DNA of 64,000 nt from Candidatus Omnitrophota bacterium (GCA_016782495.1 JADHYL010000001.1:34360-98359), one strand, 5' to 3'. Positions 8,922 through 36,965 are shown, counted from the first letter of the stretch. Program-made: numbers and translations. The notes: a model not told the origin generated them from the sequence alone.

Positions 8922-8971
8922 ATATATAACCTCCAACCCTCTCTACACCAATAATCATTGGTGTGGGGGCT

Positions 8972-8999
8972 AATTTATCATAAATGCGCGATTTGTCAA
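8972..8999 (-). promoter_or_regulatory. Sigma70-like promoter for the rplU operon. Minus strand reads TTGACA, a 16-nt spacer, then TAAATT.
   Basis: TTGACA at 8999..8994 with the -10 element at 8977..8972. It lies immediately after a terminator hairpin and upstream of the palindromic leader CACCAATGATTATTGGTG. Confidence 0.45.
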
Positions 9000-9010
9000 G
9001 AAAAATCCCT

Positions 9011-9047
9011 GAGATTGCTGAAAAAGTCTTAATAAAACAGCAATCTC
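9011..9047 (-). terminator. Intrinsic terminator-like hairpin, the first of three in this spacer. GAGATTGCTG/CAGCAATCTC with a 17-nt loop, followed on the minus strand by ATTTTTCTT.
   Basis: Perfect 10-bp inverted repeat with a downstream U-run on the transcribed strand. Sits between the end of the pilus operon and the rplU promoter. Confidence 0.5.
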
Positions 9048-9065
9048 TGATTAAAAGATTAAAAT

Positions 9066-9110
9066 AGATTACACAGATTAAATTTATCGTCGAGAAAATC
9101 TATGTAATCT
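9066..9110 (-). repeat. Second hairpin of the triple array: AGATTACACAGATT / AATCTATGTAATCT, 13 of 14 bp paired with an 18-nt loop. Short GATTAAA-like direct repeats flank it.
   Basis: Seen directly. GATTAAAA, GATTAAAA, GATTACACA and GATTAAATT occur in tandem at 9052-9082. Confidence 0.4.
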
Positions 9111-9131
9111 TTTCTAAAATCTGCGTAATCA

Positions 9132-9170
9132 GAGGTCGCTGTAGAATTTTAGGAGTTTTTCAGCGACCTC
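9132..9170 (-). terminator. Hairpin that begins 11 nt after the pilX-like stop. GAGGTCGCTG/CAGCGACCTC, a perfect 10-bp stem with a 19-nt loop.
   Basis: Seen directly. The tail on the transcribed strand (TGATTACGCAGATTTTAG) is only moderately U-rich. Confidence 0.4.
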
Positions 9171-9181
9171 TCCCTATTTGG

Positions 9182-10354
9182 TCATCTATTCCAGCTTACC
9201 ACCCTGAACGGCTCTTCTTCGCCACCCGGGCCAAGCAATCCGTCGGGACTTAAAAGTTTGTGGTTATAAGTTATATGGCTTAGTAAATCCCAGATTCTTA
9301 TGTTTCTCGCGGCCAAAAGAGAACCCGTAACGGTAACGCGCGAAAAAGCCGCGACAACACGGAAATCCCGCACCGCATAAACAACGGCCTCCTCGACTTC
9401 CAGCCGGTAATATATATATATATCACCCTGAGTGCTTCCGTCATCACTTCCTTTTGCGATAACAACATTTTTATTACCTGTTTTTATCTGGTTTAACCGG
9501 CCGCGGATAAGGATCTTATCCGCGACAATACCTCCGTTCAAGTTTACAGTCCCCTGTAAAGTAGCGGTGCCGTTAACATACACTATGCCGTTTCCGGGGG
9601 TGAGGTTGGTCGTAGTGCCAACTGAACCGAAGGTGGTATCCCCGTTATAATAATCGCCGCTGGCTATTGCTTGGGTTTGATAGTAGGCGTAGTTGAATTG
9701 GGGAAATAATACCGGCGCAACGTCAACCCCAACGTCAGAGCCCTGGGTTACGCTTCCCGCAATCTGTATACTGCCCCCCCATCCTGTTGATTGAAATACC
9801 CTGTTAACGGCTGAGACGCTCCCATCGCAACACCCGTAGCCACAGGGGTCTACGTCAATAAGCGCGATTGCCTGGGCCCTTAGTCTTACATCGTTATTCG
9901 CGTGAAGATCGCCATTAACATCCGCAAGACCCAGGAAAAATGCCCTGAGCCTTAAATCAGTGCCGGCTGCCATCATATAAAAAAGTGCCGTGGCAGTATT
10001 GTCTTTCACTTCCACCGCCACTGTCCGCGAAATGCCATCGAAAGCGCCAACCGACGTCAGAAGCACCCTGCCACCGGATTCGGTCACCGTAACGTTATAA
10101 CCGCCCCCGCCAAAGGTATTATCCACTAAAGGAAAATATGTGTCTTTGGCCATAAAACCGTTTTGCACTAATGTTGCCAGGCCGTCGTTTATACCCGCTT
10201 CGGCAATATACTGTGCCGTCGTGGATTTTTTCAGGTGCCGGACCATGTGGACATCCTGCAGTAACATATTTGAGGCACTTACACCTATCAAAACCATAAG
10301 CATGGAAATAACTATAACGGTTATAAATATTGCGCCTTTGGTATTCTTAATCAT
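9182..10354 (-). CDS. PilX-like type IV pilus assembly protein / minor pilin-like protein, 390 aa.
   Basis: N-terminus MIKNTKGAIFITVIVISMLMVLIGVSASNMLLQDV resembles the PilX N-terminal domain, with a hydrophobic segment and no classic G-FTLIE cleavage box. It is the last gene of the pil operon and has a Gly/Thr/Val-rich beta-type C-terminal region. Confidence 0.55.
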   Translation of the reverse strand: MIKNTKGAIFITVIVISMLMVLIGVSASNMLLQDVHMVRHLKKSTTAQYIAEAGINDGLATLVQNGFMAKDTYFPLVDNTFGGGGYNVTVTESGGRVLLTSVGAFDGISRTVAVEVKDNTATALFYMMAAGTDLRLRAFFLGLADVNGDLHANNDVRLRAQAIALIDVDPCGYGCCDGSVSAVNRVFQSTGWGGSIQIAGSVTQGSDVGVDVAPVLFPQFNYAYYQTQAIASGDYYNGDTTFGSVGTTTNLTPGNGIVYVNGTATLQGTVNLNGGIVADKILIRGRLNQIKTGNKNVVIAKGSDDGSTQGDIYIYYRLEVEEAVVYAVRDFRVVAAFSRVTVTGSLLAARNIRIWDLLSHITYNHKLLSPDGLLGPGGEEEPFRVVSWNR

Positions 10355-12498
10355 TTTCCGGTATTCCTCGGCTCGACCTCGGTTTTCATGCCGGTTTTGT
10401 AGTCTAAGCCTTGAAAATCTTCGTAAACGGTTACATCAAACTCGATACCCTTCATTAGATCATTTCCATCTACAAGAAGTTTTATAATTCCGTAGTCCGC
10501 ATCTTGCGCAAAATAACCGCTTATGTCACACATCTTTGTCTCGCCCGGCCAGGTGACTTTAATATTATCGACCCAGGGCGCGCTAACGCCCGGAATCAGA
10601 TACTTCCCGCATGCCGGTTGCGTGCAGTTTATGACACCGTTATTTTTATAGTTCTCGTCTGTGACGTTTACGCTCGGATGATCGATACATGTCCAATACG
10701 GCGTTGTGGAAAGCTCTGCTTTGGCCTGCGCATATCTTCCTGTACCGGCTACAGACCCGACAGTCCACGCTGCCACACCCATAAGCGGGTCATCGCTTGA
10801 ACGGCCGTAGACCGAAACAGATCCAAAGCTCGACCAATTCATGGAATCATAACCCGGATTCGCTATTTTCGTATCATAAATCTGTGTCGTAACACTACCG
10901 CTTTGCAACCAAACCTCAAGCGAGGCCTGCGCATAAATATTCGCGGATGAAGTGTACTTTTCGTCGGCGAACGGAGGCAAAACTTCATGTCCGAGATAAT
11001 CGAGCGGATCAGACCACCTAGCCTGTGCGGCATGATCGCCGCCCATCAAATATGAATTTGTGTCAGCGGGCTGGGTTCCGGCCCAGTAGCTTGTATATGA
11101 GGTTCCTGACATATAGAAGGTCACAAAGTAATTTTTTGAAGAATCAATCGGAAAAATCGCCCAATTCGAATATGCAGTGCCACCTGCGGCAATCGTTATT
11201 CCCGGCGAAATCCCGCCTAGGGCATCAGTAAAATAAAGTTGTATCCGCGTTGTACCTGGTGTTGTGATTACCGGAGGATTCACGCAATCTTCGTTGCCCG
11301 CTCTTTCATCAAAATATGCGGCATTAATTGTCAAGGTTTGAGCTGAATGCGACTCAAACTTGATCCTCAGTAAATCTCCGCCTGAATCGATATTATCGGA
11401 GAAAATAAGATTTCTTACGGTTACTCCGGAGAGCGCAGTAGCAAAATCCGCTTTTACGGCATCGCCGTTTACGCTACCGGCTTCAACCTCTGCCGTCCAC
11501 ACGATCTCATTTCCCTCCTCGGGATCCGGCAATTTCACAGATAAATCATCGCCTGCCAGAATCGTATTGTTTCTGACTGAGTTGTCGAAATTGGCTTCAA
11601 GCCAGGTGTCATAATATAGCCTAAAGTTAACATAGTCACCGATTGCGTCAGAGTTGTATTCCCGGAAATTATTTCCGCTCCAAAGTAAATCGGGACCAAC
11701 TTTTGCGCTGCCGTCACCGCTTGAGGCTTGCGGCGCGTAAACTTCCATTTCCTGCTGGCAGCCGCTCGGCGCAATCGAAAGCGTGTCTATACCTAATTCA
11801 TATCCCGACGAATCGGCATTTTGTCCGGTTACCTCGAACGTGAAATCATGATTTCCCGATGTAAGCCTGATGCTACCGAACGTCACGTTGTCGCTTCTTT
11901 TGACAGGATCGCTGTACCCGTCAAATTCCTGCGCCTTCGGATTTATAATAAAACTTGTGAGCTTCTCGACTATAACCTTAGGTGGAATAGTTGCGTTAGC
12001 TGCGTTGGGCCCTCCCGAACCGTCTCCGCTTGCGACGACGTTGGCAAGCTGCGTCTCTCTTTGGGCATCATCGACTAATACGTCGTGGTTGGCAGTAAAC
12101 TCTGTTCTTCGAAGCTCCCTGTATCCTGTCGACGGGTTATCGTAAACGTGGTATATGACGCTCTTGTCCCAGTTGATGAGTCCATCTGCGTCTAAATCAA
12201 AAAAGCCGTTTGCGTCAGGGGGTGCCATCGGAAAACTTATGGCGGTGTATTCGGTTTCACCTGCGGGCTTGTAAAGACTTAGGTATGTAGTGCTTGAAAG
12301 CCTGAGTTCTCCCTTGATCCGTTCCATGGCGACTTGAAGGTCAACTCTGTTCTTTGTTCTTATTCTGTCAAGCGCCCAGTTTTTATAGGCGAAATACCAC
12401 GCGCTTAAGACAATGCCGATCAAGATGGCGCCCAGAAGAACCGACACCATAAGCTCGATCAGCGTCATGCCTTTCTTATGATATTTTTTTCGTTTCAT
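10351..12498 (-). CDS. Giant 715-aa protein with a class III (prepilin) signal peptide. PilW-like minor pilin or putative pilus-tip adhesin.
   Basis: KKG|MTLIELMVSVLLGAILIGIV is a canonical prepilin peptidase cleavage/methylation motif, with Glu at +5. It is followed by about 680 aa of Asn/Gly/Thr/Trp/Tyr-rich sequence with several Cys pairs. Confidence 0.7.
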   Translation of the reverse strand: MKRKKYHKKGMTLIELMVSVLLGAILIGIVLSAWYFAYKNWALDRIRTKNRVDLQVAMERIKGELRLSSTTYLSLYKPAGETEYTAISFPMAPPDANGFFDLDADGLINWDKSVIYHVYDNPSTGYRELRRTEFTANHDVLVDDAQRETQLANVVASGDGSGGPNAANATIPPKVIVEKLTSFIINPKAQEFDGYSDPVKRSDNVTFGSIRLTSGNHDFTFEVTGQNADSSGYELGIDTLSIAPSGCQQEMEVYAPQASSGDGSAKVGPDLLWSGNNFREYNSDAIGDYVNFRLYYDTWLEANFDNSVRNNTILAGDDLSVKLPDPEEGNEIVWTAEVEAGSVNGDAVKADFATALSGVTVRNLIFSDNIDSGGDLLRIKFESHSAQTLTINAAYFDERAGNEDCVNPPVITTPGTTRIQLYFTDALGGISPGITIAAGGTAYSNWAIFPIDSSKNYFVTFYMSGTSYTSYWAGTQPADTNSYLMGGDHAAQARWSDPLDYLGHEVLPPFADEKYTSSANIYAQASLEVWLQSGSVTTQIYDTKIANPGYDSMNWSSFGSVSVYGRSSDDPLMGVAAWTVGSVAGTGRYAQAKAELSTTPYWTCIDHPSVNVTDENYKNNGVINCTQPACGKYLIPGVSAPWVDNIKVTWPGETKMCDISGYFAQDADYGIIKLLVDGNDLMKGIEFDVTVYEDFQGLDYKTGMKTEVEPRNTGK

Positions 12499-12502
12499 AG
12501 TA

Positions 12503-12931
12503 TTATTGGATGGTCGAAAAAATTGTAGTAAGAGTTACGGAAGCATTGTCTTTCCAGTTACCCCTGTATTTGTAGATGACTACGACTTCAAATTGCGTGC
12601 GGTTTGTATCGAGCGGGGTTACCGTTGTCGAACGGTTAAACTCGCCGTTGGGGTTTTGGCCGCCGGTCTCGTCTATTATTGTATCGGTTTCGCGTAAATC
12701 GGTTAAATAATCAAACCCGCTTGATTCTATAACGGTTCTTGCTCTTTCCATTCTTGCCGTGGCAAGATTCGTCGCTGTATATTCATGGTCGATTCTTTTT
12801 GACATATCAAGCGTTTGAACAAATATAAAAAGGATGCCCGTTATGACCATGGCAAGAATTACGGCCGAAAAGAGTACTTCAACCAGGGTAATACCGTTTT
12901 CTTTTTTAAGGGGGTTACTCAAAATACACAT
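12503..12931 (-). CDS. PilV-like minor pilin, 142 aa.
   Basis: ENG|ITLVEVLFSAVILAMVITGILF prepilin motif. Followed by LATARMERARTVIESSGFDYLTDL, which resembles PilV. Confidence 0.65.
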   Translation of the reverse strand: MCILSNPLKKENGITLVEVLFSAVILAMVITGILFIFVQTLDMSKRIDHEYTATNLATARMERARTVIESSGFDYLTDLRETDTIIDETGGQNPNGEFNRSTTVTPLDTNRTQFEVVVIYKYRGNWKDNASVTLTTIFSTIQ

Positions 12932-14393
12932 CCTCTACGTGAAGCGTCGAGTTGGTCTTTATCGTTATCTTCTTTCTGAATTTGCGTTCCAGGAAATGGA
13001 ACATGTCCCTAAAAGAGGCCGTGAGATAATCCGCTACATCCGGATGCGCCGTTAGGATAATTTCTCGCGGTCTCCTTTCTCTCGCAAGACGCTGGAGCTT
13101 GCGAACGGCTGCGATTGCGATTGTAGCAGGTGTTTTTACACGCCCCATGCCGTTGCAATAGGGGCATTCCCTGAACGATACGCTCTCGAGGCTCTTTCTC
13201 ACTCTTTGGCGCGTCATTTCGACGAGGCCAATCGGTGAGATAGTTACAATATTTATTTTTGCCTTATCCCGTTTAAATGCAGCCTCGAGTGTTGTGTATA
13301 CCTGTTTTCGATGCGTTCTTTCGTTCATATCTATAAAATCTATTACTATAATCCCGCCTATGTCTCTTAACATTACCTGCCTGGCAATCTCGGGGGCTGC
13401 CTCCATGTTTGTTTTGAAAGCCGTTTCTTCAGGCTTTGTCTTGCCTTTATACTTTCCCGTGTTTACGTCTATGGCCACGAGGCCTTCTGTCTGTTCGATA
13501 ATGATGGATGCCCCGCTTTTTAAAAACACCTTCCTGTGAAATATCCCTTCTATGCGGTCTTCGATGCCGTATCTTTCATAGAGGGGAGTTTTTCCCTTAT
13601 AATAAAAAATCTTTCTGTTCAACGCAAGGTGTATGGTGCTTGCAAATCGGGAAATTTTCCTGTATTCATCTTTTGAATCAACCAGGATTTTTTCCACATT
13701 CTCGTCGAGATAGTCCCTTATGATACGTAGCGGCAGGTCGTATTCCTCATAAATCAAAGTCGGGGCTTTTTGTTGCTCGGCGCGGCGCTGGATGCGTACC
13801 CACAAATTCGCAAGATACCGGAACTCGAGCCTGAGTTGTCTTGGTTTTACCCCGACGCTTTGAGTCCTTGCGATACAACCGATGCCTTTTGGTAAATCAA
13901 TTTTCCGAAGGGTTTCCTTAAGCCTCGATCGGTCCTCGCGGCCTGCTATGCGCTTTGAGATTCCGACCGTTTCGTTAAAGGGCATGAGCACCAAGTATTT
14001 TCCCGGCAGGCTAATATCGGTTGTGAGCAAGGGTCCTTTTGTTCCGATCGGTTCCTTTACGATCTGGACGAGGAGTTCCTGGCCCTTTTTCAGGCGTTCG
14101 AGCGGGCTTTTTTTTTGTTCGGCCCTCTTTTCGATAACTATCTCTTCATCGAGCAGCGTCTGAACGGTTTTACCTTCTCTTTCGTAAATATACAAAAAAC
14201 CGTTTTTTCCTGTCCCGATATTAACAAAGAGCGCGCCTATTCCGGGAACAACGGATTCTATCACACCCTTATAGATGTTACCGGCCAGGCGTGGTTGACC
14301 GGCTCTCTCGATATGAAATTCTTCGAGCTCGCCCCTCTGGGTAATTGCAACCCTCTTCTCATAGGGTTCGACGTTTATCAGAATTTGCTTCAT
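12915..14393 (-). CDS. rng: Ribonuclease G, RNase E/G family. The likely start is MKQILINVEPYEKR at 14393; the track ORF extends to 14540.
   Basis: S1 domain (GNIYKGVIESVVPGIGALFVNIG), the RNase E/G catalytic core, and a zinc-link CPxCxGxG (CPYCNGMGRV). Confidence 0.85.
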   Translation of the reverse strand: MKQILINVEPYEKRVAITQRGELEEFHIERAGQPRLAGNIYKGVIESVVPGIGALFVNIGTGKNGFLYIYEREGKTVQTLLDEEIVIEKRAEQKKSPLERLKKGQELLVQIVKEPIGTKGPLLTTDISLPGKYLVLMPFNETVGISKRIAGREDRSRLKETLRKIDLPKGIGCIARTQSVGVKPRQLRLEFRYLANLWVRIQRRAEQQKAPTLIYEEYDLPLRIIRDYLDENVEKILVDSKDEYRKISRFASTIHLALNRKIFYYKGKTPLYERYGIEDRIEGIFHRKVFLKSGASIIIEQTEGLVAIDVNTGKYKGKTKPEETAFKTNMEAAPEIARQVMLRDIGGIIVIDFIDMNERTHRKQVYTTLEAAFKRDKAKINIVTISPIGLVEMTRQRVRKSLESVSFRECPYCNGMGRVKTPATIAIAAVRKLQRLARERRPREIILTAHPDVADYLTASFRDMFHFLERKFRKKITIKTNSTLHVEDVYFE

Positions 14394-14406
14394 CTCAATA
14401 ATATCC

Positions 14407-16059
14407 TTACTGTTTTTTCTTCTTTCGAAAATCAAATAACGGCTTAGGTTTCGCCTTCGGGGTCTTCGCCCTGGTATCACCGGGGAGCTCCACAAATACC
14501 TCTTTTTCGTAAACAACCGCCCCTTCAGACTTCTCGCCAATAATTTCTCCGGGCAACTTTACTTCTGATACGTTACGCGTTGCAAGGCGATTTATTTCCC
14601 GCAGGTCTTTTACAATGTGGACTGTTATGAAGAAAATAAGTTCGGTCTTTTCATTGTCAACCCCCTCATGCTTTACAAGCCCTCCTATAAATGGTATATC
14701 ACCGAAAAGATCTCCAAGAAGCGGCACCTTTTTCACTATATTGATAGTATTGTCGTTTATAAGGCCGCCTATAAAAATTGTATCGCCGTCCTTTACCATG
14801 ACCTGCGTATCCGCTACCCTTGTCGACCAGAGAGGGGCGCTGAGCTCCTCGCTTATTTTCTCCACTCCTAAATAGTTGCTGATTTCCGGCTTGAGTTCCA
14901 CTACAATCTCCCTATTTTTGTTAACGTGCGGCGTTACAAGGAGCCTGATACCGAGCTCTTTGGCTTCATACCCGCTTATTACCCATCTGCCGGTCTCTTC
15001 GGTCTGGTCAAAAGTCGGGAAATTGTAGACTCTTCCGACAAGGATTTTTGCCTCTTGATTATTCAATGTTGTAATTCTCGGGTTCGATATAATTTCGGTT
15101 CTGCGCCTCTGTTTCAAAAGTTCAAGCACTGCCTGAAATTGCGAAAAATCGAGAGCGCCATAAGTAAACTGATCGGTGCCGACAAAAGGAAAGGCAACGG
15201 TCCCATCCATTGTCGATGCGAGTGGAAAGTCGGTTACGCCTGTTGTTGTTACATAATTGCCGGCGGCGTCTATTGTCCCGCCAGCGCTGCCAGTCTGCCC
15301 AAACGGATAAAATCGTTCCAGGGTGTGTGCAACTATATCGCGAGTCCCCCAATTTGCAAACGGTATCGTCGTTGGCCGTTTTGCGCCTATCGCCGCTATC
15401 CTCATCGTCCAGTCAATGCCCATTTTTTCATCTTTTTCCAAGAGTGTCTCGAATATTCGCGCCTCTATCATGACCTGGGGTGTTTTCCTGTCTAATCTCT
15501 CAACCACCCGTTTTATCCTGTAGGTATTGGTCGGGAGATCCGTTACGAGAAGTGAGTTGGTTCGCGTATCGTAAGTTATTTTACCGCGGTCGGTCAGCAT
15601 CTCCTTCACGGCATCGTGCGCTACTTCGGCGTTGGTGTAATTTAATTCTATGACCTCCGTGGATAGCTCGGCTTTCTTCAGGCTATCTATTGTGACAACC
15701 CTTATTATGTCGCCTTCGCGCTCGTACGCATAGCCATAATTCTTCACGATTATATCGAGTGCCACGTCCCATGGTTTATCCGTCAGCTTCAACGTTACCG
15801 TACCTGTCACGTCAGGGGCCGTGACTATGTCGACCCCGCTCACTTCTGAGAGGTAATTAAGAACCGCACTTATGTCAGCGTCTTTGAAATTTACCGTAAC
15901 ATGCCCAGGCTTGACATATACAACATCCTCCATATTTTTGGGTGCTTTGTCGCTTGCCAAATCTACCGATGGCGTGATTTCCTGTGAATAGACGCACTTA
16001 GTAAAAGTGAATAATGCAAGGAAAGCCAGGATCAGGCATAATTTTTTTCTGCTCATCAC
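14407..16059 (-). CDS. pilQ: Type IV pilus secretin, 550 aa.
   Basis: Signal peptide, then secretin N-domains (VTVNFKDADISAVLNYLSEVSGVDIV), then the C-terminal secretin domain (VMVKDGDTIFIGGLI...VPLLGDLFGDIPFIGGLV). Lies immediately downstream of pilMNOP. Confidence 0.85.
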   Translation of the reverse strand: MMSRKKLCLILAFLALFTFTKCVYSQEITPSVDLASDKAPKNMEDVVYVKPGHVTVNFKDADISAVLNYLSEVSGVDIVTAPDVTGTVTLKLTDKPWDVALDIIVKNYGYAYEREGDIIRVVTIDSLKKAELSTEVIELNYTNAEVAHDAVKEMLTDRGKITYDTRTNSLLVTDLPTNTYRIKRVVERLDRKTPQVMIEARIFETLLEKDEKMGIDWTMRIAAIGAKRPTTIPFANWGTRDIVAHTLERFYPFGQTGSAGGTIDAAGNYVTTTGVTDFPLASTMDGTVAFPFVGTDQFTYGALDFSQFQAVLELLKQRRRTEIISNPRITTLNNQEAKILVGRVYNFPTFDQTEETGRWVISGYEAKELGIRLLVTPHVNKNREIVVELKPEISNYLGVEKISEELSAPLWSTRVADTQVMVKDGDTIFIGGLINDNTINIVKKVPLLGDLFGDIPFIGGLVKHEGVDNEKTELIFFITVHIVKDLREINRLATRNVSEVKLPGEIIGEKSEGAVVYEKEVFVELPGDTRAKTPKAKPKPLFDFRKKKKQ

Positions 16060-16071
16060 ATCCCCCTTATG

Positions 16072-16425
16072 CTAGTATTTCTCCTCATAAATATTAAGCT
16101 TGTATTCATCCTCATCTATTAATAATAAAACGGTATTTTTTGAAATATTTTTAACGGTAACGCGGCCTATAGTCTGAGCTTCTCTTATCATTTCTCCGTT
16201 AATTATGGCGACCCTGCTACCGGCGGAGTCGTTTGCTATACCCTGTAAATCCACATCCTCTATGCTCATGACGTCTTCAAGGGACCCTGAGGCTCTCGCA
16301 TGAGTTCCTACAAGCGGTACAAACGGATCGCGTTTGCTGTGACTGTCGTATGGGCTAGCCTCACTTAGGTATGTCGTAAGAGTAAATGCAAATAAAAGTA
16401 AAAACATTACTACAAACTTTCGCAT
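16072..16425 (-). CDS. pilP: PilP-like pilus assembly lipoprotein. Start taken at MRKFVVMFLL (16425).
   Basis: Signal peptide, the conserved KRDPFVPL motif, and its position between pilO and pilQ. Confidence 0.65.
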   Translation of the reverse strand: MRKFVVMFLLLFAFTLTTYLSEASPYDSHSKRDPFVPLVGTHARASGSLEDVMSIEDVDLQGIANDSAGSRVAIINGEMIREAQTIGRVTVKNISKNTVLLLIDEDEYKLNIYEEKY

Positions 16426-16429
16426 AGTG

Positions 16430-17038
16430 TTACTCGCCGCTTTTAAATGTATATGCGTACACCACAAAATTTATATCGTGCTTTCTGGGATTGGCGGTAT
16501 TTGACTTTATTTTTATGTCCGAAACCTGCAAGTATCGCTTGTCATTTTCCATCTTGCTTATGAACTCGCCCAATTCATGATACCCGCTCTGGGCGCTTAT
16601 CGCGATGGGCAGTTCCTCGTATACACTTTCTTTTTTGTCATTTGTTTCTCTTTTTCTTACTTCAAGCGGCGTTATGCTCAAAATTTTTACGCGCGAGCTT
16701 CTTGCCATTTTCGAAATATTTCCGAAAAGTATCGGCAGTTCCTTTTCGCGCGAAAGCTTTTCTTCATAGCCACCTAATTTATCCTGCAGGGTTTTCGATC
16801 TCTCTTTAAGCTTGGCTTCAAACCCCAAATCGTCGTAAACCGCTTTCATTTCCATTCTTAATACCCTTACCTCTGGTATAAGGCTGAAGAGCCTTGCAAT
16901 GCTGGGGCTTAGAAAGACAAAAATGTACACGGCAAACAAGACTAAAAGCCCCACGCCGTAAAAAAGGAGAATCTTTTTCTTCGATTCATCCAATTCAAGT
17001 TGCGGCATGTTTTTAAAAATGCTTGTTATTCCCGCCAT
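16430..17038 (-). CDS. pilO: PilO-like inner-membrane pilus alignment protein.
   Basis: 202 aa with a single N-terminal transmembrane helix and a coiled-coil. Position between pilN and pilP. Confidence 0.6.
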   Translation of the reverse strand: MAGITSIFKNMPQLELDESKKKILLFYGVGLLVLFAVYIFVFLSPSIARLFSLIPEVRVLRMEMKAVYDDLGFEAKLKERSKTLQDKLGGYEEKLSREKELPILFGNISKMARSSRVKILSITPLEVRKRETNDKKESVYEELPIAISAQSGYHELGEFISKMENDKRYLQVSDIKIKSNTANPRKHDINFVVYAYTFKSGE

Positions 17039-17713
17039 CTATCTACCCTTCTTTTCCGGATTGAACTTGCAGATTACAGCAAAACTCATAACTTCCTGGC
17101 CCTCTACGATCGCCTTTTTTATGGGGCCTTGCCCGATTTCCGCAAAGTGTTTTGCGAAGCCCTTATTATCTTTTAATGACTCTACGAAACGGGTTATGTA
17201 GTCTGTTGCGTCCCCGCCCTTACCCAGGGCATAGCCTGACAAGGTAAGGGTGCGTACTTTAACTGCCCTGGTTGTTGCTGTTTTTTTGGCCGTTGGTTTT
17301 CTGCCGGCCAAGCCTTTAGGGCCTTTTACTGTTTCTGTTACATTCCGCTCGCTGTAGAAAAATTCGCGCAGCCAGATATTGGCCGTTAGACTATCGCTTA
17401 TCTCGTTTAAAAGACCCGACCATCTGAGTCGTCGCACGATCAGCTCGTCTATGGCCTGCCCTTTTTTATCAATGTCGGCTATATTTTTCTTGATTTCGTC
17501 AAGTTCCGATTTTTTTGGCGCAAGGCTTTCCCACTCTTTTCCTAACCGGGTAAGCTGGCTCTTACTTACGTATATAAGCCCGCCCAAGATGAGCTGGATT
17601 GCCACCATGCCCGCGACCACCCAAATAACGATGGGGATGATCGGTATTTCCGGTAACTCGATCTTCCTTTTCTTTTTTTTCAGCTCCTCGGGGAGCAGGT
17701 TTAATTCTATCAT
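17039..17713 (-). CDS. pilN: PilN-like pilus assembly protein.
   Basis: MIELNLLPEE, the INLLP-type N-terminal motif, followed by a transmembrane helix. 224 aa. Confidence 0.7.
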   Translation of the reverse strand: MIELNLLPEELKKKKRKIELPEIPIIPIVIWVVAGMVAIQLILGGLIYVSKSQLTRLGKEWESLAPKKSELDEIKKNIADIDKKGQAIDELIVRRLRWSGLLNEISDSLTANIWLREFFYSERNVTETVKGPKGLAGRKPTAKKTATTRAVKVRTLTLSGYALGKGGDATDYITRFVESLKDNKGFAKHFAEIGQGPIKKAIVEGQEVMSFAVICKFNPEKKGR

Positions 17714-18733
17714 TTATTTCCTGATCGCCAATCCACAAGAAACGGCAAATTGGGATTGAATGGTTTGAAGGGACTTCGGATCCACATCCGGGCCGATCTC
17801 AATTCTTGAAAATGGATTCCACAATATCGGTTTCATTCCGAAACTTTCTTCAAAATAATTCAAAATGCCTTCCAGGCGCGTTACACCGCCGGAGACGTAA
17901 ATTTCATTAAGCCCCTTTCCGTACTGGTTTTCGTAATATCCGAAAGATAACCTGAGTTCGTTGGCTAGATCGCTTAAAACCGGTTTCGTCGCCTCGAAAA
18001 CCTGTAAGATCTTATCTTTGGGGTCAAATATCAGCGTGTCGGATTCTTTTTCATCTACCTGGAGTATCTTTGAAATGGCCTTACCCACATCCTTGCCTCC
18101 GATCAATATGTCCCTGGTAAAAAAGGGCTTATCCCCTCTTGATATGACAACATTGGTTTGCGTATAGCCGATGTTTAAGAGCGCGGTGCTTTTGGATTCG
18201 TCCAGGCTTTCAAAGGAATTGCAGAACGCATTAAAACAGGCAAAGCTATCGATATCGATGACGGGAACGAAAAACCCGATTTCTTTCAACATGTCGATTC
18301 TGGAATTGATATCCTGTTTTTTTGCGGCGGCCAAAAGAACCCTCATCTGGCTTTTTCCTCCGGTGGCACTTTCCAATATGAGCGCGTCAATGTTTACGTC
18401 GTTGATGTTGAAAGGTATGTACTTTTCCGCTTCGAAACGCAGGGAATTTTTGAGGTCTTCTGCTTTCATCTTTGGCATCTCGATGAACCTCACGATAGCC
18501 GAAGGGGCTGAAAGAGAAATATTAATGTCTTTTGTGGACGGGCGGAAACGTTCCAGAAGTGCCTTGAGCGTCTTGCCGGCCTTGGTTTGGGTTGGCGGGA
18601 ATTCGATCTCGGCGGAATCGAACTTCACAAGCTTCTCGCGGCTCGCCTCCGACGATATCTCTACTATCTTGATGCATCTCGTGCCGATATCAAGACCTAC
18701 GCGTGATATCTTTTTTGAAGGTCGGGGCTTCAT
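17714..18733 (-). CDS. pilM: PilM, an actin-like ATPase-fold pilus assembly protein.
   Basis: 339 aa. Phosphate-1 motif GLDIGTRCIKIVEI and an FtsA/PilM family layout. First gene of pilMNOPQ. Confidence 0.85.
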   Translation of the reverse strand: MKPRPSKKISRVGLDIGTRCIKIVEISSEASREKLVKFDSAEIEFPPTQTKAGKTLKALLERFRPSTKDINISLSAPSAIVRFIEMPKMKAEDLKNSLRFEAEKYIPFNINDVNIDALILESATGGKSQMRVLLAAAKKQDINSRIDMLKEIGFFVPVIDIDSFACFNAFCNSFESLDESKSTALLNIGYTQTNVVISRGDKPFFTRDILIGGKDVGKAISKILQVDEKESDTLIFDPKDKILQVFEATKPVLSDLANELRLSFGYYENQYGKGLNEIYVSGGVTRLEGILNYFEESFGMKPILWNPFSRIEIGPDVDPKSLQTIQSQFAVSCGLAIRK

Positions 18734-27342: not shown

Positions 27343-28413
27343 CTATCCTTCTCTCCTGATTAGTTTGCGAAGCTCATCGGGATTTGTCGATTTCTGCAGA
27401 CACACCTCTGGGGTTACAGCGCCTTTGTTGTAGAGATCCGCCAGCGATTGGTTCATCGTTTTCATCCCGTCTTTCTGTGAAGTTTGTATGACCGAATATA
27501 TCTGGTGAACCTTGCTCTCGCGAATCAAGCTCCTTACAGCAGGTGTTGCCACGAGGACTTCGGTGGCAAGTACCCTGCCCGATTCCCCGGCCTTCGGCAA
27601 TAACTGTTGCGAAACTATGGCAAGGAGCACGAACGAAAGTTGCGTCTTTATCTGCTGCTGCTGGTGGGCGGGAAACACGTCAATAACCCTGTTGACGGTT
27701 TGCACGGCGTCAGAGGTATGCAGGGTGGCGAAAACGAGATGCCCCGTTTCAGCGATTATCAAAGCGCTTTCTATGGTTTCCAGGTCTCTCATCTCGCCGA
27801 TCAGGATGACGTCGGGGTCCTGTCGTAAGACGTGTTTTAAGGAATCGCCGAACGAATGCGTATCCGTGTAGACCTCTCGCTGTTCCACAAGGGCTTTTTT
27901 GTTTTTGTGCACGAATTCTATAGGATCTTCGATGGTTACGATGTGGCACTGGCTGTGGTCATTTATATAGTCTACCATCGAGGCAAGTGTCGTAGATTTT
28001 CCGCTTCCTGTCGCTCCAGTAACCAATACAAGCCCCTTTGGCTTATTACAGAGTTCCGTTACGATGTCGACAGGGAGCCCGCATTGTTCGAAATTTAAAA
28101 TATCAAAAGGAATAAGCCTTATTGCGCAACCAACCGATCCTCTCTGATAAAAGATGTTAACCCTGAATCGGGCCACATTTTTAACCTCGAAAGAAAAATC
28201 CAGCTCCCAGTCTTTCTCAAACTGCTTTATCTGTTCCGGGCTTAACAAGGCGTAGGAAGCTTGCTTTGTTTCCTCTGCGTTTAAGGGTGACTTTCCGATC
28301 GGATAAAGCTTTTCGTCAATTCTTAAATGGATCGGCGAATTCGTCGTGATGTGCATGTCAGAAGCATTCTTTTCCAGCATCATCTTTAACAAACCCTTTA
28401 TATCTATTCCCAT
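27343..28413 (-). CDS. pilT: Twitching-motility retraction ATPase PilT.
   Basis: 356 aa. Walker A VLVTGATGSGKSTTLASM, plus PilT-specific segments (VNIFYQRG, AHQQQQIKTQLS). Confidence 0.9.
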   Translation of the reverse strand: MGIDIKGLLKMMLEKNASDMHITTNSPIHLRIDEKLYPIGKSPLNAEETKQASYALLSPEQIKQFEKDWELDFSFEVKNVARFRVNIFYQRGSVGCAIRLIPFDILNFEQCGLPVDIVTELCNKPKGLVLVTGATGSGKSTTLASMVDYINDHSQCHIVTIEDPIEFVHKNKKALVEQREVYTDTHSFGDSLKHVLRQDPDVILIGEMRDLETIESALIIAETGHLVFATLHTSDAVQTVNRVIDVFPAHQQQQIKTQLSFVLLAIVSQQLLPKAGESGRVLATEVLVATPAVRSLIRESKVHQIYSVIQTSQKDGMKTMNQSLADLYNKGAVTPEVCLQKSTNPDELRKLIRREG

Positions 28414-28414
28414 A

Positions 28415-29845
28415 TTATACCCCTGCTCCTATTATTTTATTTTTTCCTTCTTCTTTGGCTTTGCCAAGCGCCGCTTGGGCCTTCTCCAAGATTTCGTTCG
28501 CGGTTGGCCCGTCAAGCGGGTTTTCGCTTACCCCGCAACTTACGGTTAGCGTATTGCCTTTTTCTTCGGATAATTGCATCTTTTCGACTCGCTTCCTGAT
28601 CTTTTCCGCAATTTGCAAGACAGCTTTTTTATTTACTTCTGGCATGATCAATGCAAAGAGATCCTTGTCAAACCTGCCGGCTTTTCCCAGCGGACCGGAA
28701 AGCTCCGTTATGAGGTGGCCGATCTTTTTCAGTGCGACCGCCGCCTGTGCCTTGCCCTTTTCGGTCTCGTATTTTTTGAAGTCATCGATATCCAGCAGGA
28801 TAAAGGAGCACGGCCTGTGAGAAATAAAGGAACGTTGTATTTCCTCATTTAGACGCCTTTTCATAAAATCCTTGTTGAACAAGCCCGTAAGCTGGTCCTT
28901 TATTTGCAGCTTTTCGGCCGTTTTCATCAGAACGTCGTTTTCGATGGCGATCGCGATCTGCTCTGTAAAAACCTTTATTATTTCCACATCGTCATTTGTA
29001 TATGTAAAGTTCTTTATCCCGTTGCCTGTGACGAGCAGGGCCTTCACATCCCTGATGGTAAACAATGGAAAGATTACTATGTTCTCGCATTTGTATTTTT
29101 CTTTAAATTCCTGGTTTTCGCGTGAGAACTTGGAGGAAGCGTCCATTACGATATGTTTTTTCTTCAGCATGGCCTTGCCCAGGAGCCCGCTTCCGCTCTC
29201 GATGGTCGCTGTTAAAAGATTTTCATTGACCAGGTTTTGAGACAGTCGCACGGTAAGCGGCTTGTCCGGCTCATCGGAAAAATAGAGCGCTGCAAATCCG
29301 CCGTCGTAAAGCTGGGCTATTTTAAGAAGTACTATCTCGATAATGCTGTCTAATTTGACGGACGAGGATATAAGCTCCCCTATTTGCAGGACATTGGATA
29401 AAACGGAAACCCTCTTTTGTATTTCCGCGTTTATCTCCTTCATCTTCTCCTGGTAATCCTTGAGATCCATTATGTTATCCCTGATTTTCTTTGTTAAGAA
29501 GTTTATCGCCTCACCAATTTCACCGATTTCGTCTTCAGTCCCAACGGGAACCTTTCTTTCAAAATTTCCCTCTCTGATGATTTTGGTCTCGAGGGCAACG
29601 TCTATAACGCGCTCGACAATTCCTTTTGCAAGAAATAGCCCCAGCCAGGCGATCGCGATGGAGAAAAGAACCATCGTGCTTATCTGGCCGAGCGAAATCT
29701 CCCCGTCAAATAATATGAAATTGTTTACTATGTACCCGATAACAAGGAGCGGTATTACCGACATTAAGCTAAACGCTATCAATAATTTATAGCGTAGCCC
29801 ATAGGGCAAAAGCGAAAGTCTCTTTAAAAAACTTTTTTCTTTCAT
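28415..29845 (-). CDS. Membrane-anchored HAMP-GAF-GGDEF-like protein with a degenerate GGDEF site. Putative regulator.
   Basis: Two N-terminal transmembrane helices and a HAMP-like linker, then a GAF-like middle region. The C-terminal GGDEF fold starts KDQLTGLFNKDF...ILLDIDDFK, but the signature motif reads AGRFDKDLFALIMPE where RYGG(D/E)EFxxLLP is expected. Confidence 0.7.
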   Translation of the reverse strand: MKEKSFLKRLSLLPYGLRYKLLIAFSLMSVIPLLVIGYIVNNFILFDGEISLGQISTMVLFSIAIAWLGLFLAKGIVERVIDVALETKIIREGNFERKVPVGTEDEIGEIGEAINFLTKKIRDNIMDLKDYQEKMKEINAEIQKRVSVLSNVLQIGELISSSVKLDSIIEIVLLKIAQLYDGGFAALYFSDEPDKPLTVRLSQNLVNENLLTATIESGSGLLGKAMLKKKHIVMDASSKFSRENQEFKEKYKCENIVIFPLFTIRDVKALLVTGNGIKNFTYTNDDVEIIKVFTEQIAIAIENDVLMKTAEKLQIKDQLTGLFNKDFMKRRLNEEIQRSFISHRPCSFILLDIDDFKKYETEKGKAQAAVALKKIGHLITELSGPLGKAGRFDKDLFALIMPEVNKKAVLQIAEKIRKRVEKMQLSEEKGNTLTVSCGVSENPLDGPTANEILEKAQAALGKAKEEGKNKIIGAGV

Positions 29846-35174: not shown

Positions 35175-36965
35175 TTATTTGAGGATTATACTATTTTTAA
35201 TTTTGTCTTGGGTAATAGTATAAGCTTCTGATTCAGCCGAAAAATTTTCCAGGATATACCGGTATGCGCGACGCGCAGCCTCGTAATCCCCGGCCCCTTC
35301 ACAGGCTGTGGCAATCCTGAGCCACGCCATGGATTTATGTTTCTCGGTTTTGGCGCGCTTTAACATCCTTTCATATACGCCGACGGCATCTTTATATTTT
35401 TCCTCTAGCATTAAAAGTTGCCCGAGATTTAAATAAGCTGTAAAATAATCGGGATTTTTTCTTATTATTTTTTCAAAAAGAACCCTGGCCCTTTCACGCT
35501 CTCCCCCGAGGGCCCTTACCAGCGCAATCGTATTTGAAAGTTCCGGCCTTTGGGGTTCAATAAGAAGGCCCTTTTCGGCGACGGCGAGGGCCTCGCCGGG
35601 TTTCATCGTTTCGAAATAAAGTTTGCTCAAATTTATATATGCTGGCACAAAGTTTTTATCAAGCCGTATGGCCTTTTTGTATTCTTTTTCGGCTTCGGGA
35701 AATTTGTCATTACCACTTTCGTAATGCGCCCGGCCTAGGTTGTTATGCAGGCGCGCGTTTAAGGGCTCTTTTTTTATATCATTTTCAAATAACGCAAGTT
35801 CCGTCTTCCAGTCTCTGTTTCGCTCGATCGTGGCAAAAGAGGCCCCTACGATAATTACCGCAAAGGAAGCGAAAAGAAGAACTTGGTTCTTTAGGATGTG
35901 GCTTAAAAATATCCCGGTTAGCGTGGTAACGGCAATACCCGGAAGATAAAGAAATCTCTCTGCTACAAGAATTTTTATCGGTATGATGTTGCTTACCGGT
36001 AAAAGCGTAATAAAAAACCACGCGATGAAAAAGGCAACCGCCCCATTGCGCTTCACAAAATTTACAAAAGCGACCAGCGATAGAATTAAAAAACCCACTC
36101 CTCCTAAAAAGTAAGGATTTGCCGGTGATGGAACTACGGAAATCAGATGATCCGAGCACAACCGTATCGGAAATAGCATAAAGCGCGCGTATGTCAGGAA
36201 AATTTTGGGGACCGTGAGGAGGTTGATAAAGGGGTTGCCGCTCCAATAAGAACACTGCGCGACCTTGCCGAGAATCGCATAGCGGCCTAATAAGTATGCC
36301 GCAAGTAGCGCAAAGAAAGGCAGCCAAGCGATATAGGCCTTGCCGCTATTTTTTTTTCTGCGAATGAAAATAACATCATATAAAACAATAAGCAAGGGAA
36401 ATGTAGCTGCGGTTTCCTTCGAAAGAAGCGCTCCTGCAAAACCAAAAAGCGAAAATAAATAGTAGGGTTGCGTATTTTCACGCGCTCTCCATCCCATGTA
36501 AAACAAAAACGCACCAAGATAAAAAAAGAGAAAAAGGACGTTTGACCTCCCGGAAATCCACGTTACTGCTTCTGTCTGGATGGGGTGAACGGCGAACAAC
36601 AAAGCTGCGAAGGCCGCTGGTATTCTTTTCCGCACAATCTTTTCGACCAGAAAAAATACAAGGATCGCATTTGCGATGTGTAAAAGTATATTCGTCAGAT
36701 GATACCCGAATGTGCTTAACCCCCAAAGGGAATAATCAATCGCATAGGAAAGCGTTACAAAAGGCCGGTAATTCTCAAAAGCGAGTGTTCCCGCAGCAAG
36801 GGTTTGCGGTTCAGTAAAAAAAGTTCGCAAGGCGCGAAGACTGCGGATGGCAGGGTTGTTATTGACATATGAACGGTCATCCCAGACAAAATCTCCGTCA
36901 AGTGAATTAAGGTAACAAAAAACGCCTGCGGCTATTATTAAAAATATTACCGTCGTCTTTGTCAT
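35175..36965 (-). CDS. Second GT-C family (PMT/ArnT/TMTC-like) membrane glycosyltransferase with C-terminal TPR repeats, 596 aa. Paralog of 19584-21620.
   Basis: N-terminus LDGDFVWDDRSY...ENYRPFVTLSYAIDYSLWGLSTFGYHLTNILLHIANAILVFFLV is nearly identical in motif content to the first paralog. TPR-like repeats at the C-terminus. The start overlaps the aroA stop by 4 nt. Confidence 0.75.
   Translation of the reverse strand: MTKTTVIFLIIAAGVFCYLNSLDGDFVWDDRSYVNNNPAIRSLRALRTFFTEPQTLAAGTLAFENYRPFVTLSYAIDYSLWGLSTFGYHLTNILLHIANAILVFFLVEKIVRKRIPAAFAALLFAVHPIQTEAVTWISGRSNVLFLFFYLGAFLFYMGWRARENTQPYYLFSLFGFAGALLSKETAATFPLLIVLYDVIFIRRKKNSGKAYIAWLPFFALLAAYLLGRYAILGKVAQCSYWSGNPFINLLTVPKIFLTYARFMLFPIRLCSDHLISVVPSPANPYFLGGVGFLILSLVAFVNFVKRNGAVAFFIAWFFITLLPVSNIIPIKILVAERFLYLPGIAVTTLTGIFLSHILKNQVLLFASFAVIIVGASFATIERNRDWKTELALFENDIKKEPLNARLHNNLGRAHYESGNDKFPEAEKEYKKAIRLDKNFVPAYINLSKLYFETMKPGEALAVAEKGLLIEPQRPELSNTIALVRALGGERERARVLFEKIIRKNPDYFTAYLNLGQLLMLEEKYKDAVGVYERMLKRAKTEKHKSMAWLRIATACEGAGDYEAARRAYRYILENFSAESEAYTITQDKIKNSIILK

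Follow-up and report, generated by a model that had tools for sequence, protein, structure and literature searches.

A 715-residue prepilin encoded in a conserved three-gene cassette of Omnitrophota, a candidate modular minor pilin and tip adhesin

The Omnitrophota form a widespread phylum of uncultured bacteria, most of them ultra-small, for which genomics suggests a host-dependent or predatory lifestyle; type IVa pili are near-universal among them and have been proposed as attachment devices, and no adhesin has been named (PMC10066038). Here we analyse a stretch of 64,000 nucleotides from a Candidatus Omnitrophota bacterium (GCA_016782495.1, JADHYL010000001.1:34360-98359; hereafter the window) and in particular one of its genes, which encodes a 715-residue protein with a prepilin leader. 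A preliminary description of the window had proposed this protein, the large pilin, to be a pilus-tip adhesin built as a giant pilin. We find that it represents a large protein family with a conserved leader, a predicted series of beta-domains and two constant partner genes, and we weigh what this arrangement says about its function.

Results

A very large prepilin between two pilin-type genes

The large pilin is encoded by the middle one of three tightly packed genes of a type IVa pilus locus.

12503-12931, minus strand: small minor pilin, 142 residues, leader ending KKENG/ITLVE with Glu at +5 (slash, predicted cleavage); Pfam N_methyl, 24.2 bits against a cut-off of 21.2
10351-12498, minus strand: large pilin, ATG start, 715 residues
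9182-10354, minus strand: PilX/GspK-type protein, 390 residues; Pfam PilX_N (PF14341), 33 bits against a cut-off of 25.5

The gap between the small and the large pilin genes is 4 nucleotides (nt), and the start of the PilX-like gene overlaps the large-pilin stop by 4 nt. The N-terminus of the large pilin, MKRKKYHKKG/MTLIELMVSVLLGAILIGIVL, is a prepilin leader ending KKG/MTLIE. It scored 28.1 bits with Pfam N_methyl (PF07963; cut-off 21.2) and 21.6 bits with TIGR02532 (cut-off 16.3), which bears out both the reading frame and the leader originally proposed. Judged by these matches and by the family alignment described below, the protein has the short hydrophilic leader followed by a hydrophobic tract of ~20 residues that characterizes class III signals. 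A six-frame motif scan of the window located three prepilin-type N-termini with Glu+5, all within the pilus locus: those of the large pilin, of its 142-residue neighbour and of a 115-residue putative major pilin (21699-22046). The large pilin is 5.0 times the size of the former and 6.2 times that of the latter, in keeping with the estimate of five to seven times the usual size of a minor pilin.

Beyond the leader the protein carries no database signature. N_methyl was the sole Pfam match at E <= 1, the NCBIfam matches (ComGE, GspH and HpsC) were all under cut-off and restricted to the N-terminus, and the PilW and T2SSJ models of Pfam and the GspJ model of NCBIfam did not match. The protein is identical to NCBI record MBL7155559.1 from a Candidatus Omnitrophota metagenome-assembled genome, titled 'prepilin-type N-terminal cleavage/methylation domain-containing protein'. 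The corresponding gene call in ENA (P0001, 705 residues) begins at Met11, the predicted mature N-terminus, and so lacks the leader, which the NCBI record retains in its 715 residues. Such an annotation mismatch would mask the prepilin signal of the large pilin.

The composition of the C-terminal 650 residues was compared with 11,287 residues from other proteins of the window. As the preliminary description had noted, the region is rich in Asn (6.2 versus 4.0%), Thr (7.8 versus 5.1%), Gly (8.9 versus 7.0%), Trp (2.0 versus 0.6%) and Tyr (5.4 versus 3.1%); Ser and Asp are also enriched, and Lys, Arg, Leu and Glu are depleted. With Trp, Tyr, Asn and Thr elevated, the composition is of the extracellular-protein type. 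The ectodomain is strongly acidic, with an isoelectric point (pI) of 4.29 and a net charge of -45, and all of its sub-domains have a pI <5.

A large family defined by its leader

A word-indexed search with the large pilin returned 50 homologues, nearly all of them full length (665-780 residues). Those with a named source came from Omnitrophota without exception, and none of the 50 had a precomputed Pfam domain. An exhaustive profile search recovered at least 348 clusters (50% identity) at E <= 1e-30 and 925 at E <= 1e-10, and almost all of the best 150 matches aligned end to end. As far as these searches indicate, the family is new, unannotated and apparently specific to Omnitrophota.

For the analysis of conservation we used an alignment of 44 family members with identities down to 23%. 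Glu+5 (Glu15 of the query) was present in 43 of 43 aligned sequences. Position -1 was occupied by Gly in 36 of 41 and otherwise by Ser (2), Ala (2) or Tyr (1). A lack of conservation at these two positions had been named in advance as the sign of a fortuitous motif. Because both are conserved across homologues, the leader is not fortuitous, and the alignment identifies it as a defining feature of the family rather than a chance match. Acidity is equally general: each of the 44 sequences has a strongly acidic ectodomain, with medians of 4.35 for the pI and -43 for the net charge.

The cysteines behave differently from what had been supposed. The large pilin does contain six (at positions 247, 405, 604, 625, 630 and 657), and the preliminary description had pointed to several Cys pairs; these are not a conserved feature, since some homologues have no Cys or only one. 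Cys247 and Cys657 occur together in 22 family members, Cys657 without Cys247 in 13, Cys247 without Cys657 in 2, and neither in 7. As the two do not co-vary cleanly, we dropped conserved Cys pairs as a defining trait of the family. About half of the family have the segment bearing Cys604, Cys625 and Cys630 (residues ~604-631; window 10606-10689, minus strand), which the other members lack as a whole. These three residues and Cys657 might make up a small cluster, held by disulfides or a metal.

The conserved unit is a three-gene cassette

Ten related loci (L001-L010) were compared, drawing on a contig profile search with a 12-sequence alignment of large pilins. The order of small pilin, large pilin and PilX-like gene seen in the window recurred in L001, L003, L004, L006, L007, L008, L009 and L010, and the PilX-like gene also lay downstream in L002 and L005, which are truncated at their ends and start within or just after the large-pilin gene; their downstream genes agree with those of the window. 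Counted by gene, a PilX-like homologue followed the large pilin in 12 of 12 cases, and a homologue of the small pilin preceded it in all nine cases with upstream DNA. The expectation that homologues would always be found in a pilVWX-type context was therefore borne out.

Conservation extends beyond the cassette among closer relatives. In L001, L003 and L004, whose large pilins are 44-76% identical, the order of pilMNOPQ, rng, small pilin, large pilin, PilX-like gene, rplU, rpmA, obg, proB and proA is that of the window. L006 and L007, the most distant loci examined (23% and 29% identity), have a different wider neighbourhood and keep both flanks of the cassette, as seen by blastp with the small pilin (E = 1.7e-07 and 1.1e-17) and the PilX-like protein (9.5e-15 and 8.2e-21). 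These two cassettes lie near T2SSE or T2SSG genes, without a full pilMNOPQ set. The whole cassette is duplicated in tandem in L008 (128-7319) and L009 (5672-13355), the first small pilin of L008 being cut by the contig end. The conserved unit is the three-gene cassette, which in the lineage of the window is appended to pilMNOPQ-rng. Its conservation speaks for a joint function of the three proteins.

The flanking proteins differ in how well they can be placed. PilX_N above its cut-off confirms the downstream protein as PilX-like. Its N-terminus (NTKG/AIFIT) lacks Glu+5, as do those of its relatives in 12 of 12 related genes. The small pilin, which retains Glu+5 in 8 of 9 related genes, had been described as PilV-like. 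Its matches to PilV, GspI and ComGE were all below the NCBIfam cut-offs and limited to the N-terminus, and its sequence supports that label weakly. Single-sequence searches of the PDB with the 142- and 390-residue proteins returned nothing meaningful.

Predicted architecture of the large pilin

An AlphaFold2 model of the large pilin, built with the 44-sequence alignment, had a mean predicted local distance difference test (pLDDT) score of 89.1 and a predicted template modelling (pTM) score of 0.72. The model and the family alignment together divide the protein into the following segments, in which CBM denotes a carbohydrate-binding module.

12469-12498, minus strand: leader peptide, residues 1-10 (MKRKKYHKKG), basic and ending in Gly, with predicted prepilin-peptidase cleavage after Gly10
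12301-12468, minus strand: alpha1 of the mature pilin, residues 11-66, a helix in the model, with a hydrophobic alpha1-N part and Glu15 (Glu+5)
12004-12300, minus strand: small head, residues 67-165, three main strands and two helices, ending in GDGS
11734-12003, minus strand: beta region, residues 166-255, of which 204-242 resemble C-terminal strands of MiXBM (7EHG)
11284-11733, minus strand: beta domain or domains, residues 256-405, all-beta in the model
10879-11283, minus strand: variable CBM-like beta-sandwich, residues 406-540, with both insertion hotspots inside
10354-10878, minus strand: C-terminal beta domains, residues 541-715, with a Cys-containing insert and a conserved last domain (641-715)

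The model begins with a helix of 54 residues (13-66; pLDDT 77-90) that corresponds to the alpha1 helix of pilins. This region also matched the N-terminus of Geopilin in a profile comparison (E = 0.002). Strands follow up to residue 135 and two helices occupy residues 138-157; from about residue 174 to the C-terminus at 715 the model is beta save for two very short helices. When residues 1-172 were modelled alone (19-sequence alignment; pLDDT 78.9) the same alpha1 helix was recovered. A sequence profile of the head found in the PDB only generic alpha1 matches (Geopilin and PilA), and the pilin head may be completed by strands from further downstream.

The junction of head and beta-domains is marked by a GDGS motif (residues 158-161; window 12016-12027, minus strand). 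Gly158 and Gly160 are invariant and Asp159 nearly so in the 19-sequence head alignment, and Gly158 is nearly invariant in the 44-sequence set. It could serve as a hinge or bind a metal.

Comparison of six segments of the protein with each other by hhalign revealed no internal repeats (all probabilities <1%); the beta-domains are therefore not a repeat array.

Carbohydrate-binding-type relatives of the beta-domains

A Foldseek search of the PDB with the full model found no whole-chain relative. The significant matches were local, spanning ~130-220 columns, and led (E = 5e-9) to the N-terminal 'CBM-like' domain of acetylxylan esterases of the FjoAcXE type (7TOG, 7TOH, 7TOJ and 7TOK) and to a polyvinyl-alcohol esterase (9KR0). 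In sequence, 7TOK aligned weakly but co-linearly, which places the CBM-like domain at about residues 412-505. In a library of viral structures the same module (~220 columns) recurred in phage proteins (best E = 1.4e-9), among them one containing an SGNH hydrolase and several tail fibres.

A second resemblance came from a sequence profile search of the PDB, in which residues 204-242 matched the last strands of MiXBM (7EHG; E = 1.6e-07), a name that presumably stands for 'xanthan-binding module'. MiXBM is listed under a Microbacterium xanthan lyase (PMC10881899). We considered whether residues 166-255 and 641-715 make up one discontinuous MiXBM-like domain and do not claim this, as the second HMMER stretch was non-significant (score -1.7). 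Residues 256-405 had no recognisable relative, and Pfam placed none of the classified CBM families on the large pilin at E <= 1.

The preliminary description had suggested inspecting a predicted structure for a beta-propeller or a von Willebrand factor A (vWA) fold. Instead of these, which were absent from the significant fold matches in both the PDB and the viral library, the model shows alpha1 and a beta-sandwich with relatives of carbohydrate-binding type. Nor was a beta-solenoid or a DNA-binding protein among the significant fold matches. From the model and the profile match we conclude that at least one beta-domain (residues 406-540) is predicted to have a CBM-like fold and that residues 204-242 resemble part of another such module. 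The CBM-like domain would bind glycans.

Variation and insertions concentrate in the CBM-like domain

Mean pairwise identity within the family is 44% for residues 67-165, 43% for 166-255 and 33% for 256-405; it reaches its lowest value of 30.5% in the CBM-like domain (406-540) and rises again to 39.5% for 541-640 and 44% for 641-715. Large insertions (56-265 residues), sought among 183 family sequences, were all located after residue ~426 or after residue ~504, both within the CBM-like domain. At the second of these hotspots one 1010-residue member (P0087) carries a Laminin_G_3/ConA-like lectin domain (E = 1.7e-10); NCBI names this Omnitrophota protein 'LamG-like jellyroll fold domain-containing protein'. 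Inserts of 88-265 residues occupy the first hotspot in P0051 (938 residues), P0058 (838 residues) and P0023 (753 residues). A Pfam scan of the insert of P0051 detected no domain, and none is precomputed for that of P0023. P0023 has a paralogue in the same genome (P0015; locus L009), and the two are 30% identical in the CBM-like domain versus 45-57% in other segments. A conserved base combined with a variable, insertion-tolerant distal domain fits what the sequence of a specificity-determining adhesin would be expected to look like.

The pilus locus and its surroundings

The window is a core chromosomal region comprising the dcw/mur cluster, mreBCD-PBP2-rodA, aminoacyl-tRNA synthetases and rplU-rpmA-obg-proBA. 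Its minus strand, which is also that of the cassette, holds the genes of a complete type IVa pilus, PilT among them.

12915-14540, minus strand: RNase G/E-family gene (rng), between pilQ and the cassette; its end overlaps the start of the small-pilin gene by 17 nt
14407-18733, minus strand: pilM, pilN, pilO, pilP-like and pilQ (secretin), upstream of the cassette; Pfam PilM_2, PilO, Secretin, Secretin_N and STN, and synteny
21699-22046, minus strand: putative major pilin, 115 residues; Pfam N_methyl
22173-23393, minus strand: PilC platform protein; Pfam T2SSF
23398-25131 and 25142-26881, minus strand: two PilB-like ATPases, each with an MshEN domain; Pfam T2SSE and MshEN
26884-27339, minus strand: stand-alone MshEN protein, 151 residues; Pfam MshEN
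27343-28413, minus strand: PilT-like retraction ATPase; Pfam T2SSE

No gene for a fourth (FimU/GspH) or fifth (PilE) minor pilin was found in the window. The position of rng between pilQ and the cassette, also kept in L001, L003, L004, L009 and L010, makes it an odd but stable partner. A single pilQ-rng-cassette operon is plausible: promoter and terminator scans gave counts near the shuffled expectation, with no convincing terminator in this run of genes. A gene for a HAMP-GAF-GGDEF diguanylate cyclase comes after that of PilT in coordinate order (locus 23398-29845, minus strand); together with the MshEN domains it suggests control of pilus extension by cyclic-di-GMP.

Between the major pilin and pilM (18810-21620, minus strand) are encoded a family 2 glycosyltransferase (GT2) and a 678-residue protein with a long hydrophobic N-terminal part, judged by eye from the translation, and C-terminal tetratricopeptide repeats (TPR). 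A further protein with C-terminal TPR repeats (596 residues; 35175-36965, minus strand) lies near mreB. A role of the GT2 and TPR proteins in glycosylation of pilins or the envelope is possible.

In five of the related loci the PilX-like gene is directly followed by one for a secreted-looking aspartyl protease of the retropepsin type (~245-255 residues; PF13975/PF13650, DTGAS motif):

L002, 3328-4086
L003, 10363-11106
L005, 1533-2276
L009, 13362-14099
L010, 11497-12264

This gene is absent from the equivalent position in the window (8937-9181) and in L001 and L008. Just upstream of rplU (8940-8999) the window has a promoter-like site with an extended -10 element (8999-8972, minus strand) and an inverted repeat with a 13-bp stem (8940-8969). 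An Rfam scan of the window produced no match, and hence no ribosomal-protein leader.

Discussion

A candidate tip adhesin

On the sequence evidence presented here the large pilin is a genuine, conserved and very large minor pilin. We consider it fairly probable that it is a modular minor type IV pilin which acts as a tip adhesin, and one that probably binds glycans; we infer its adhesive function, its location at the tip and its ligand. As a mechanism we propose that a prepilin peptidase, whose gene would lie outside the window, would remove the 10-residue leader. On the model of GspI-J-K and PilV-W-X, the products of the cassette would then form the complex that primes assembly and would for that reason end up at the tip, with the PilX-type protein that lacks Glu+5 uppermost and the large pilin in the PilW/GspJ position. 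From there its beta-domains would project, and the variable CBM-like domain would bind a surface polysaccharide or another cell-surface ligand. Retraction driven by PilT would pull the very small cell onto a surface or host. In this way the large pilin would take on the job that falls to the non-pilin adhesin PilY1/PilC in Pseudomonas and Neisseria.

Several observations weigh against this proposal. A Foldseek search of the PDB with the head model (residues 1-172) gave no match at E <= 0.001 and no pilin among the top 50. Because the head fold has no match and neither the PilW nor the T2SSJ model recognizes the protein, its assignment as PilW/GspJ comes from gene order alone. Within the 64-kb window we found neither a prepilin peptidase (Peptidase_A24) nor a PilY1-type gene. 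The resemblance to MiXBM spans only ~39 residues, and the CBM-like domain of the esterases fits no CBM family and takes part in sugar binding only through residues where it meets the catalytic domain (PMC9105624). Finally, a second pair of paralogues (P0029 and P0037) has diverged without preference for the CBM-like domain.

Other explanations

The most serious alternative, which we nevertheless hold to be unlikely, is that the large pilin serves in priming or capping only, as an enlarged core minor pilin of the PilW/GspJ type. It occupies the core minor-pilin slot of a minimal cassette directly behind pilMNOPQ, and the parts that would form its base (67-255 and 641-715) are the most conserved. 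GspK provides an established case of a large tip pseudopilin that acts as a cap (PMC7248040), and the closest CBM-like domain of known structure has no binding pocket of its own (PMC9105624). However, a cap would need far less than ~550 residues of beta-sandwich. Hypervariability and two insertion hotspots mark the distal CBM-like domain, into which one member has taken up a lectin, and the cassette has been duplicated with divergence. Given this variability, the insertions, the lectin gain and the diverged duplicates, ligand specificity fits better than pure scaffolding.

It is quite improbable that the large pilin is an enzyme displayed on the pilus, such as a polysaccharide esterase or hydrolase, or a pseudopilin of a piston resembling that of type II secretion. 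The best fold matches do belong to carbohydrate esterases and phage SGNH-hydrolase proteins, but they are restricted to the CBM-like accessory domain. The alpha/beta/alpha catalytic fold of SGNH hydrolases is excluded by the C-terminal 550 residues, which are nearly free of helices in the AlphaFold2 model, and no catalytic family was matched in Pfam or NCBIfam; on these two grounds we rejected a displayed enzyme. For these readings speak also the L006 and L007 cassettes, with T2SSE or T2SSG genes nearby rather than a full pilMNOPQ set, and the fact that extracellular glycoside hydrolases often accompany pilus or secretion genes in Omnitrophota loci (bioRxiv 10.64898/2026.06.07.730766). Against them, the locus in the window encodes PilT, PilM, PilN, PilO, PilP and PilQ and so resembles that of a retractile type IVa pilus.

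We regard as very improbable a role as the DNA receptor of a competence pilus, that is, as a tip minor pilin capturing extracellular DNA in the manner of ComZ. A precedent exists in Thermus ComZ, a type IVa minor pilin likewise of very large size and extended by a beta-rich domain (PMC7248040, PMC8179133), and the leader region of the large pilin gives weak, sub-threshold matches to ComGE. Those matches are confined to the generic pilin N-terminus, and the significant fold matches include no beta-solenoid or DNA-binding protein. We rejected this role on the charge of the ectodomain, which is strongly acidic in 44 of 44 members and in the query combines a pI of 4.29 and a net charge of -45 with sub-domains that are all below pI 5.

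The idea of a fortuitous signal anchor on an unrelated surface protein, to which the absence of a prepilin peptidase gene from the window and the lack of a solved pilin resembling the isolated head would lend themselves, is effectively refuted by the invariant Glu+5, by Gly, Ala or Ser at -1 in 40 of 41 homologues down to 23% identity, by the constant position of the family between two other pilin-type genes, by an N_methyl score above cut-off and by a 54-residue alpha1 typical of pilins.

Implications

The literature on Omnitrophota consulted here (PMC10066038 and others, in part as titles and abstracts) makes no mention of the large pilin. As a large family with partner pilins, a hypervariable domain and no database signature beyond its leader, the large pilins are a concrete candidate for the missing adhesin of these bacteria. 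They offer a defined ectodomain for binding studies and a marker of host specificity for comparative genomics.

The tip-adhesin proposal can be taken further, in a form that we find conceivable though doubtful. The cassette would be a phylum-wide device for host or prey recognition by Omnitrophota nanobacteria, in a type IVa pilus without PilY1 whose PilW-position pilin is the adhesin. As in a phage receptor-binding protein, the choice of target would lie with the hypervariable CBM-like domain, its hotspots and the occasional lectin insert, and tandem cassettes would provide alternative specificities. If this were true, the host range of such uncultured bacteria could be predicted from how the sequence varies at residues ~406-540.

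The principle of an adhesin mounted on a pilin is already established under the name of 'modular pilins' (PMC8179133, PMC9934059), which makes the protein less novel than the preliminary description implied. Its value is that of a lead and a family, not of a new mechanism.

Comparison with known systems

The cassette shares with GspI-J-K and PilV-W-X the order of a small, a middle and a large PilX/GspK-type subunit, and its last member always lacks Glu+5. GspK, the apex subunit of the GspI-J-K tip complex, reportedly lacks Glu5. PilV corresponds to GspI, PilW to GspJ and PilX to GspK, and the complex primes assembly and ends at the tip (PMC7248040). Unlike GspJ and PilW (~200-300 residues), the middle subunit of the cassette has 715 residues and no match to a PilW or T2SSJ model or fold.

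ComZ of Thermus, CofB of enterotoxigenic Escherichia coli (ETEC) and TcpB of Vibrio are likewise oversized pilins that carry additional beta-rich domains, and the tip is the only place where such bulk is expected to be accommodated. In ComZ the DNA-binding part is a beta-solenoid set into the pilin sheet, whereas the large pilin is strongly acidic and has no solenoid match. CofB and TcpB come from type IVb systems, in which one minor pilin alone initiates (PMC7248040), and CofB is trimeric (PMC8179133).

Like PilY1 of Pseudomonas and PilC of Neisseria, the large pilin is a proposed large tip adhesin on a core minor-pilin complex, with pilV/pilW/pilX-type genes adjoining. PilY1/PilC are non-pilin proteins with a C-terminal beta-propeller (IPR008707, PF05567), in contrast to the large pilin with its prepilin leader, no propeller and no match to PF05567. 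The original suggestion of a PilY1/PilC equivalent fused to a pilin stem therefore stays plausible as regards a tip adhesin, whose adhesion and position would follow from the arguments given above, and fails as regards relatedness; the large pilin is at most a functional analogue of PilY1/PilC and not a relative.

Modular pilins are a described class of >1,200 proteins with 264 architectures in InterPro and have been likened to PilY1/PilC (PMC8179133). By the definition given there the large pilin belongs among them, as it has a pilin leader and alpha1 followed by ~550 residues of beta-domains that include a CBM-like sandwich. In Streptococcus sanguinis the modular pilin PilC bears a lectin; it joins the small pilin PilA in a complex at the tip and binds glycans of the host (PMC9934059). 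PilC, with its ConA-like lectin module, and PilB, with a vWA module, share with the large pilin the class III signal and a pilin module onto which domains are grafted (PMC9934059, PMC8179133). The likeness to PilC extends to the proposed tip site, to the complex with small minor pilins and to the Laminin_G_3 domain of P0087, which is of the same Pfam superfamily. We found no sequence or family relationship to either S. sanguinis protein. The large pilin differs from them in having several beta-domains (~550 residues) and no vWA fold or metal ion-dependent adhesion site (MIDAS), and in coming from a diderm with PilQ and PilT. It differs further in its place in the PilW/GspJ slot of a V-W-X-type cassette and in extra domains that have no Pfam or InterPro signature.

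A last parallel is offered by PilX1 and PilX2 of Nanosynbacter lyticus TM7x, an episymbiont of the Saccharibacteria, for which structure prediction indicates C-terminal lectin-like domains (jelly roll and beta-propeller); efficient binding to the host requires PilX2, and recognition of glycans has been put forward as the mechanism (PMC11623550). TM7x belongs to another phylum and is a monoderm, and its proteins include a propeller fold and are backed by genetic evidence, whereas the large pilin is known from sequence and a model. What the two systems have in common is that these pilins are the largest minor pilins of their loci, and TM7x too is an ultrasmall, host-associated bacterium.

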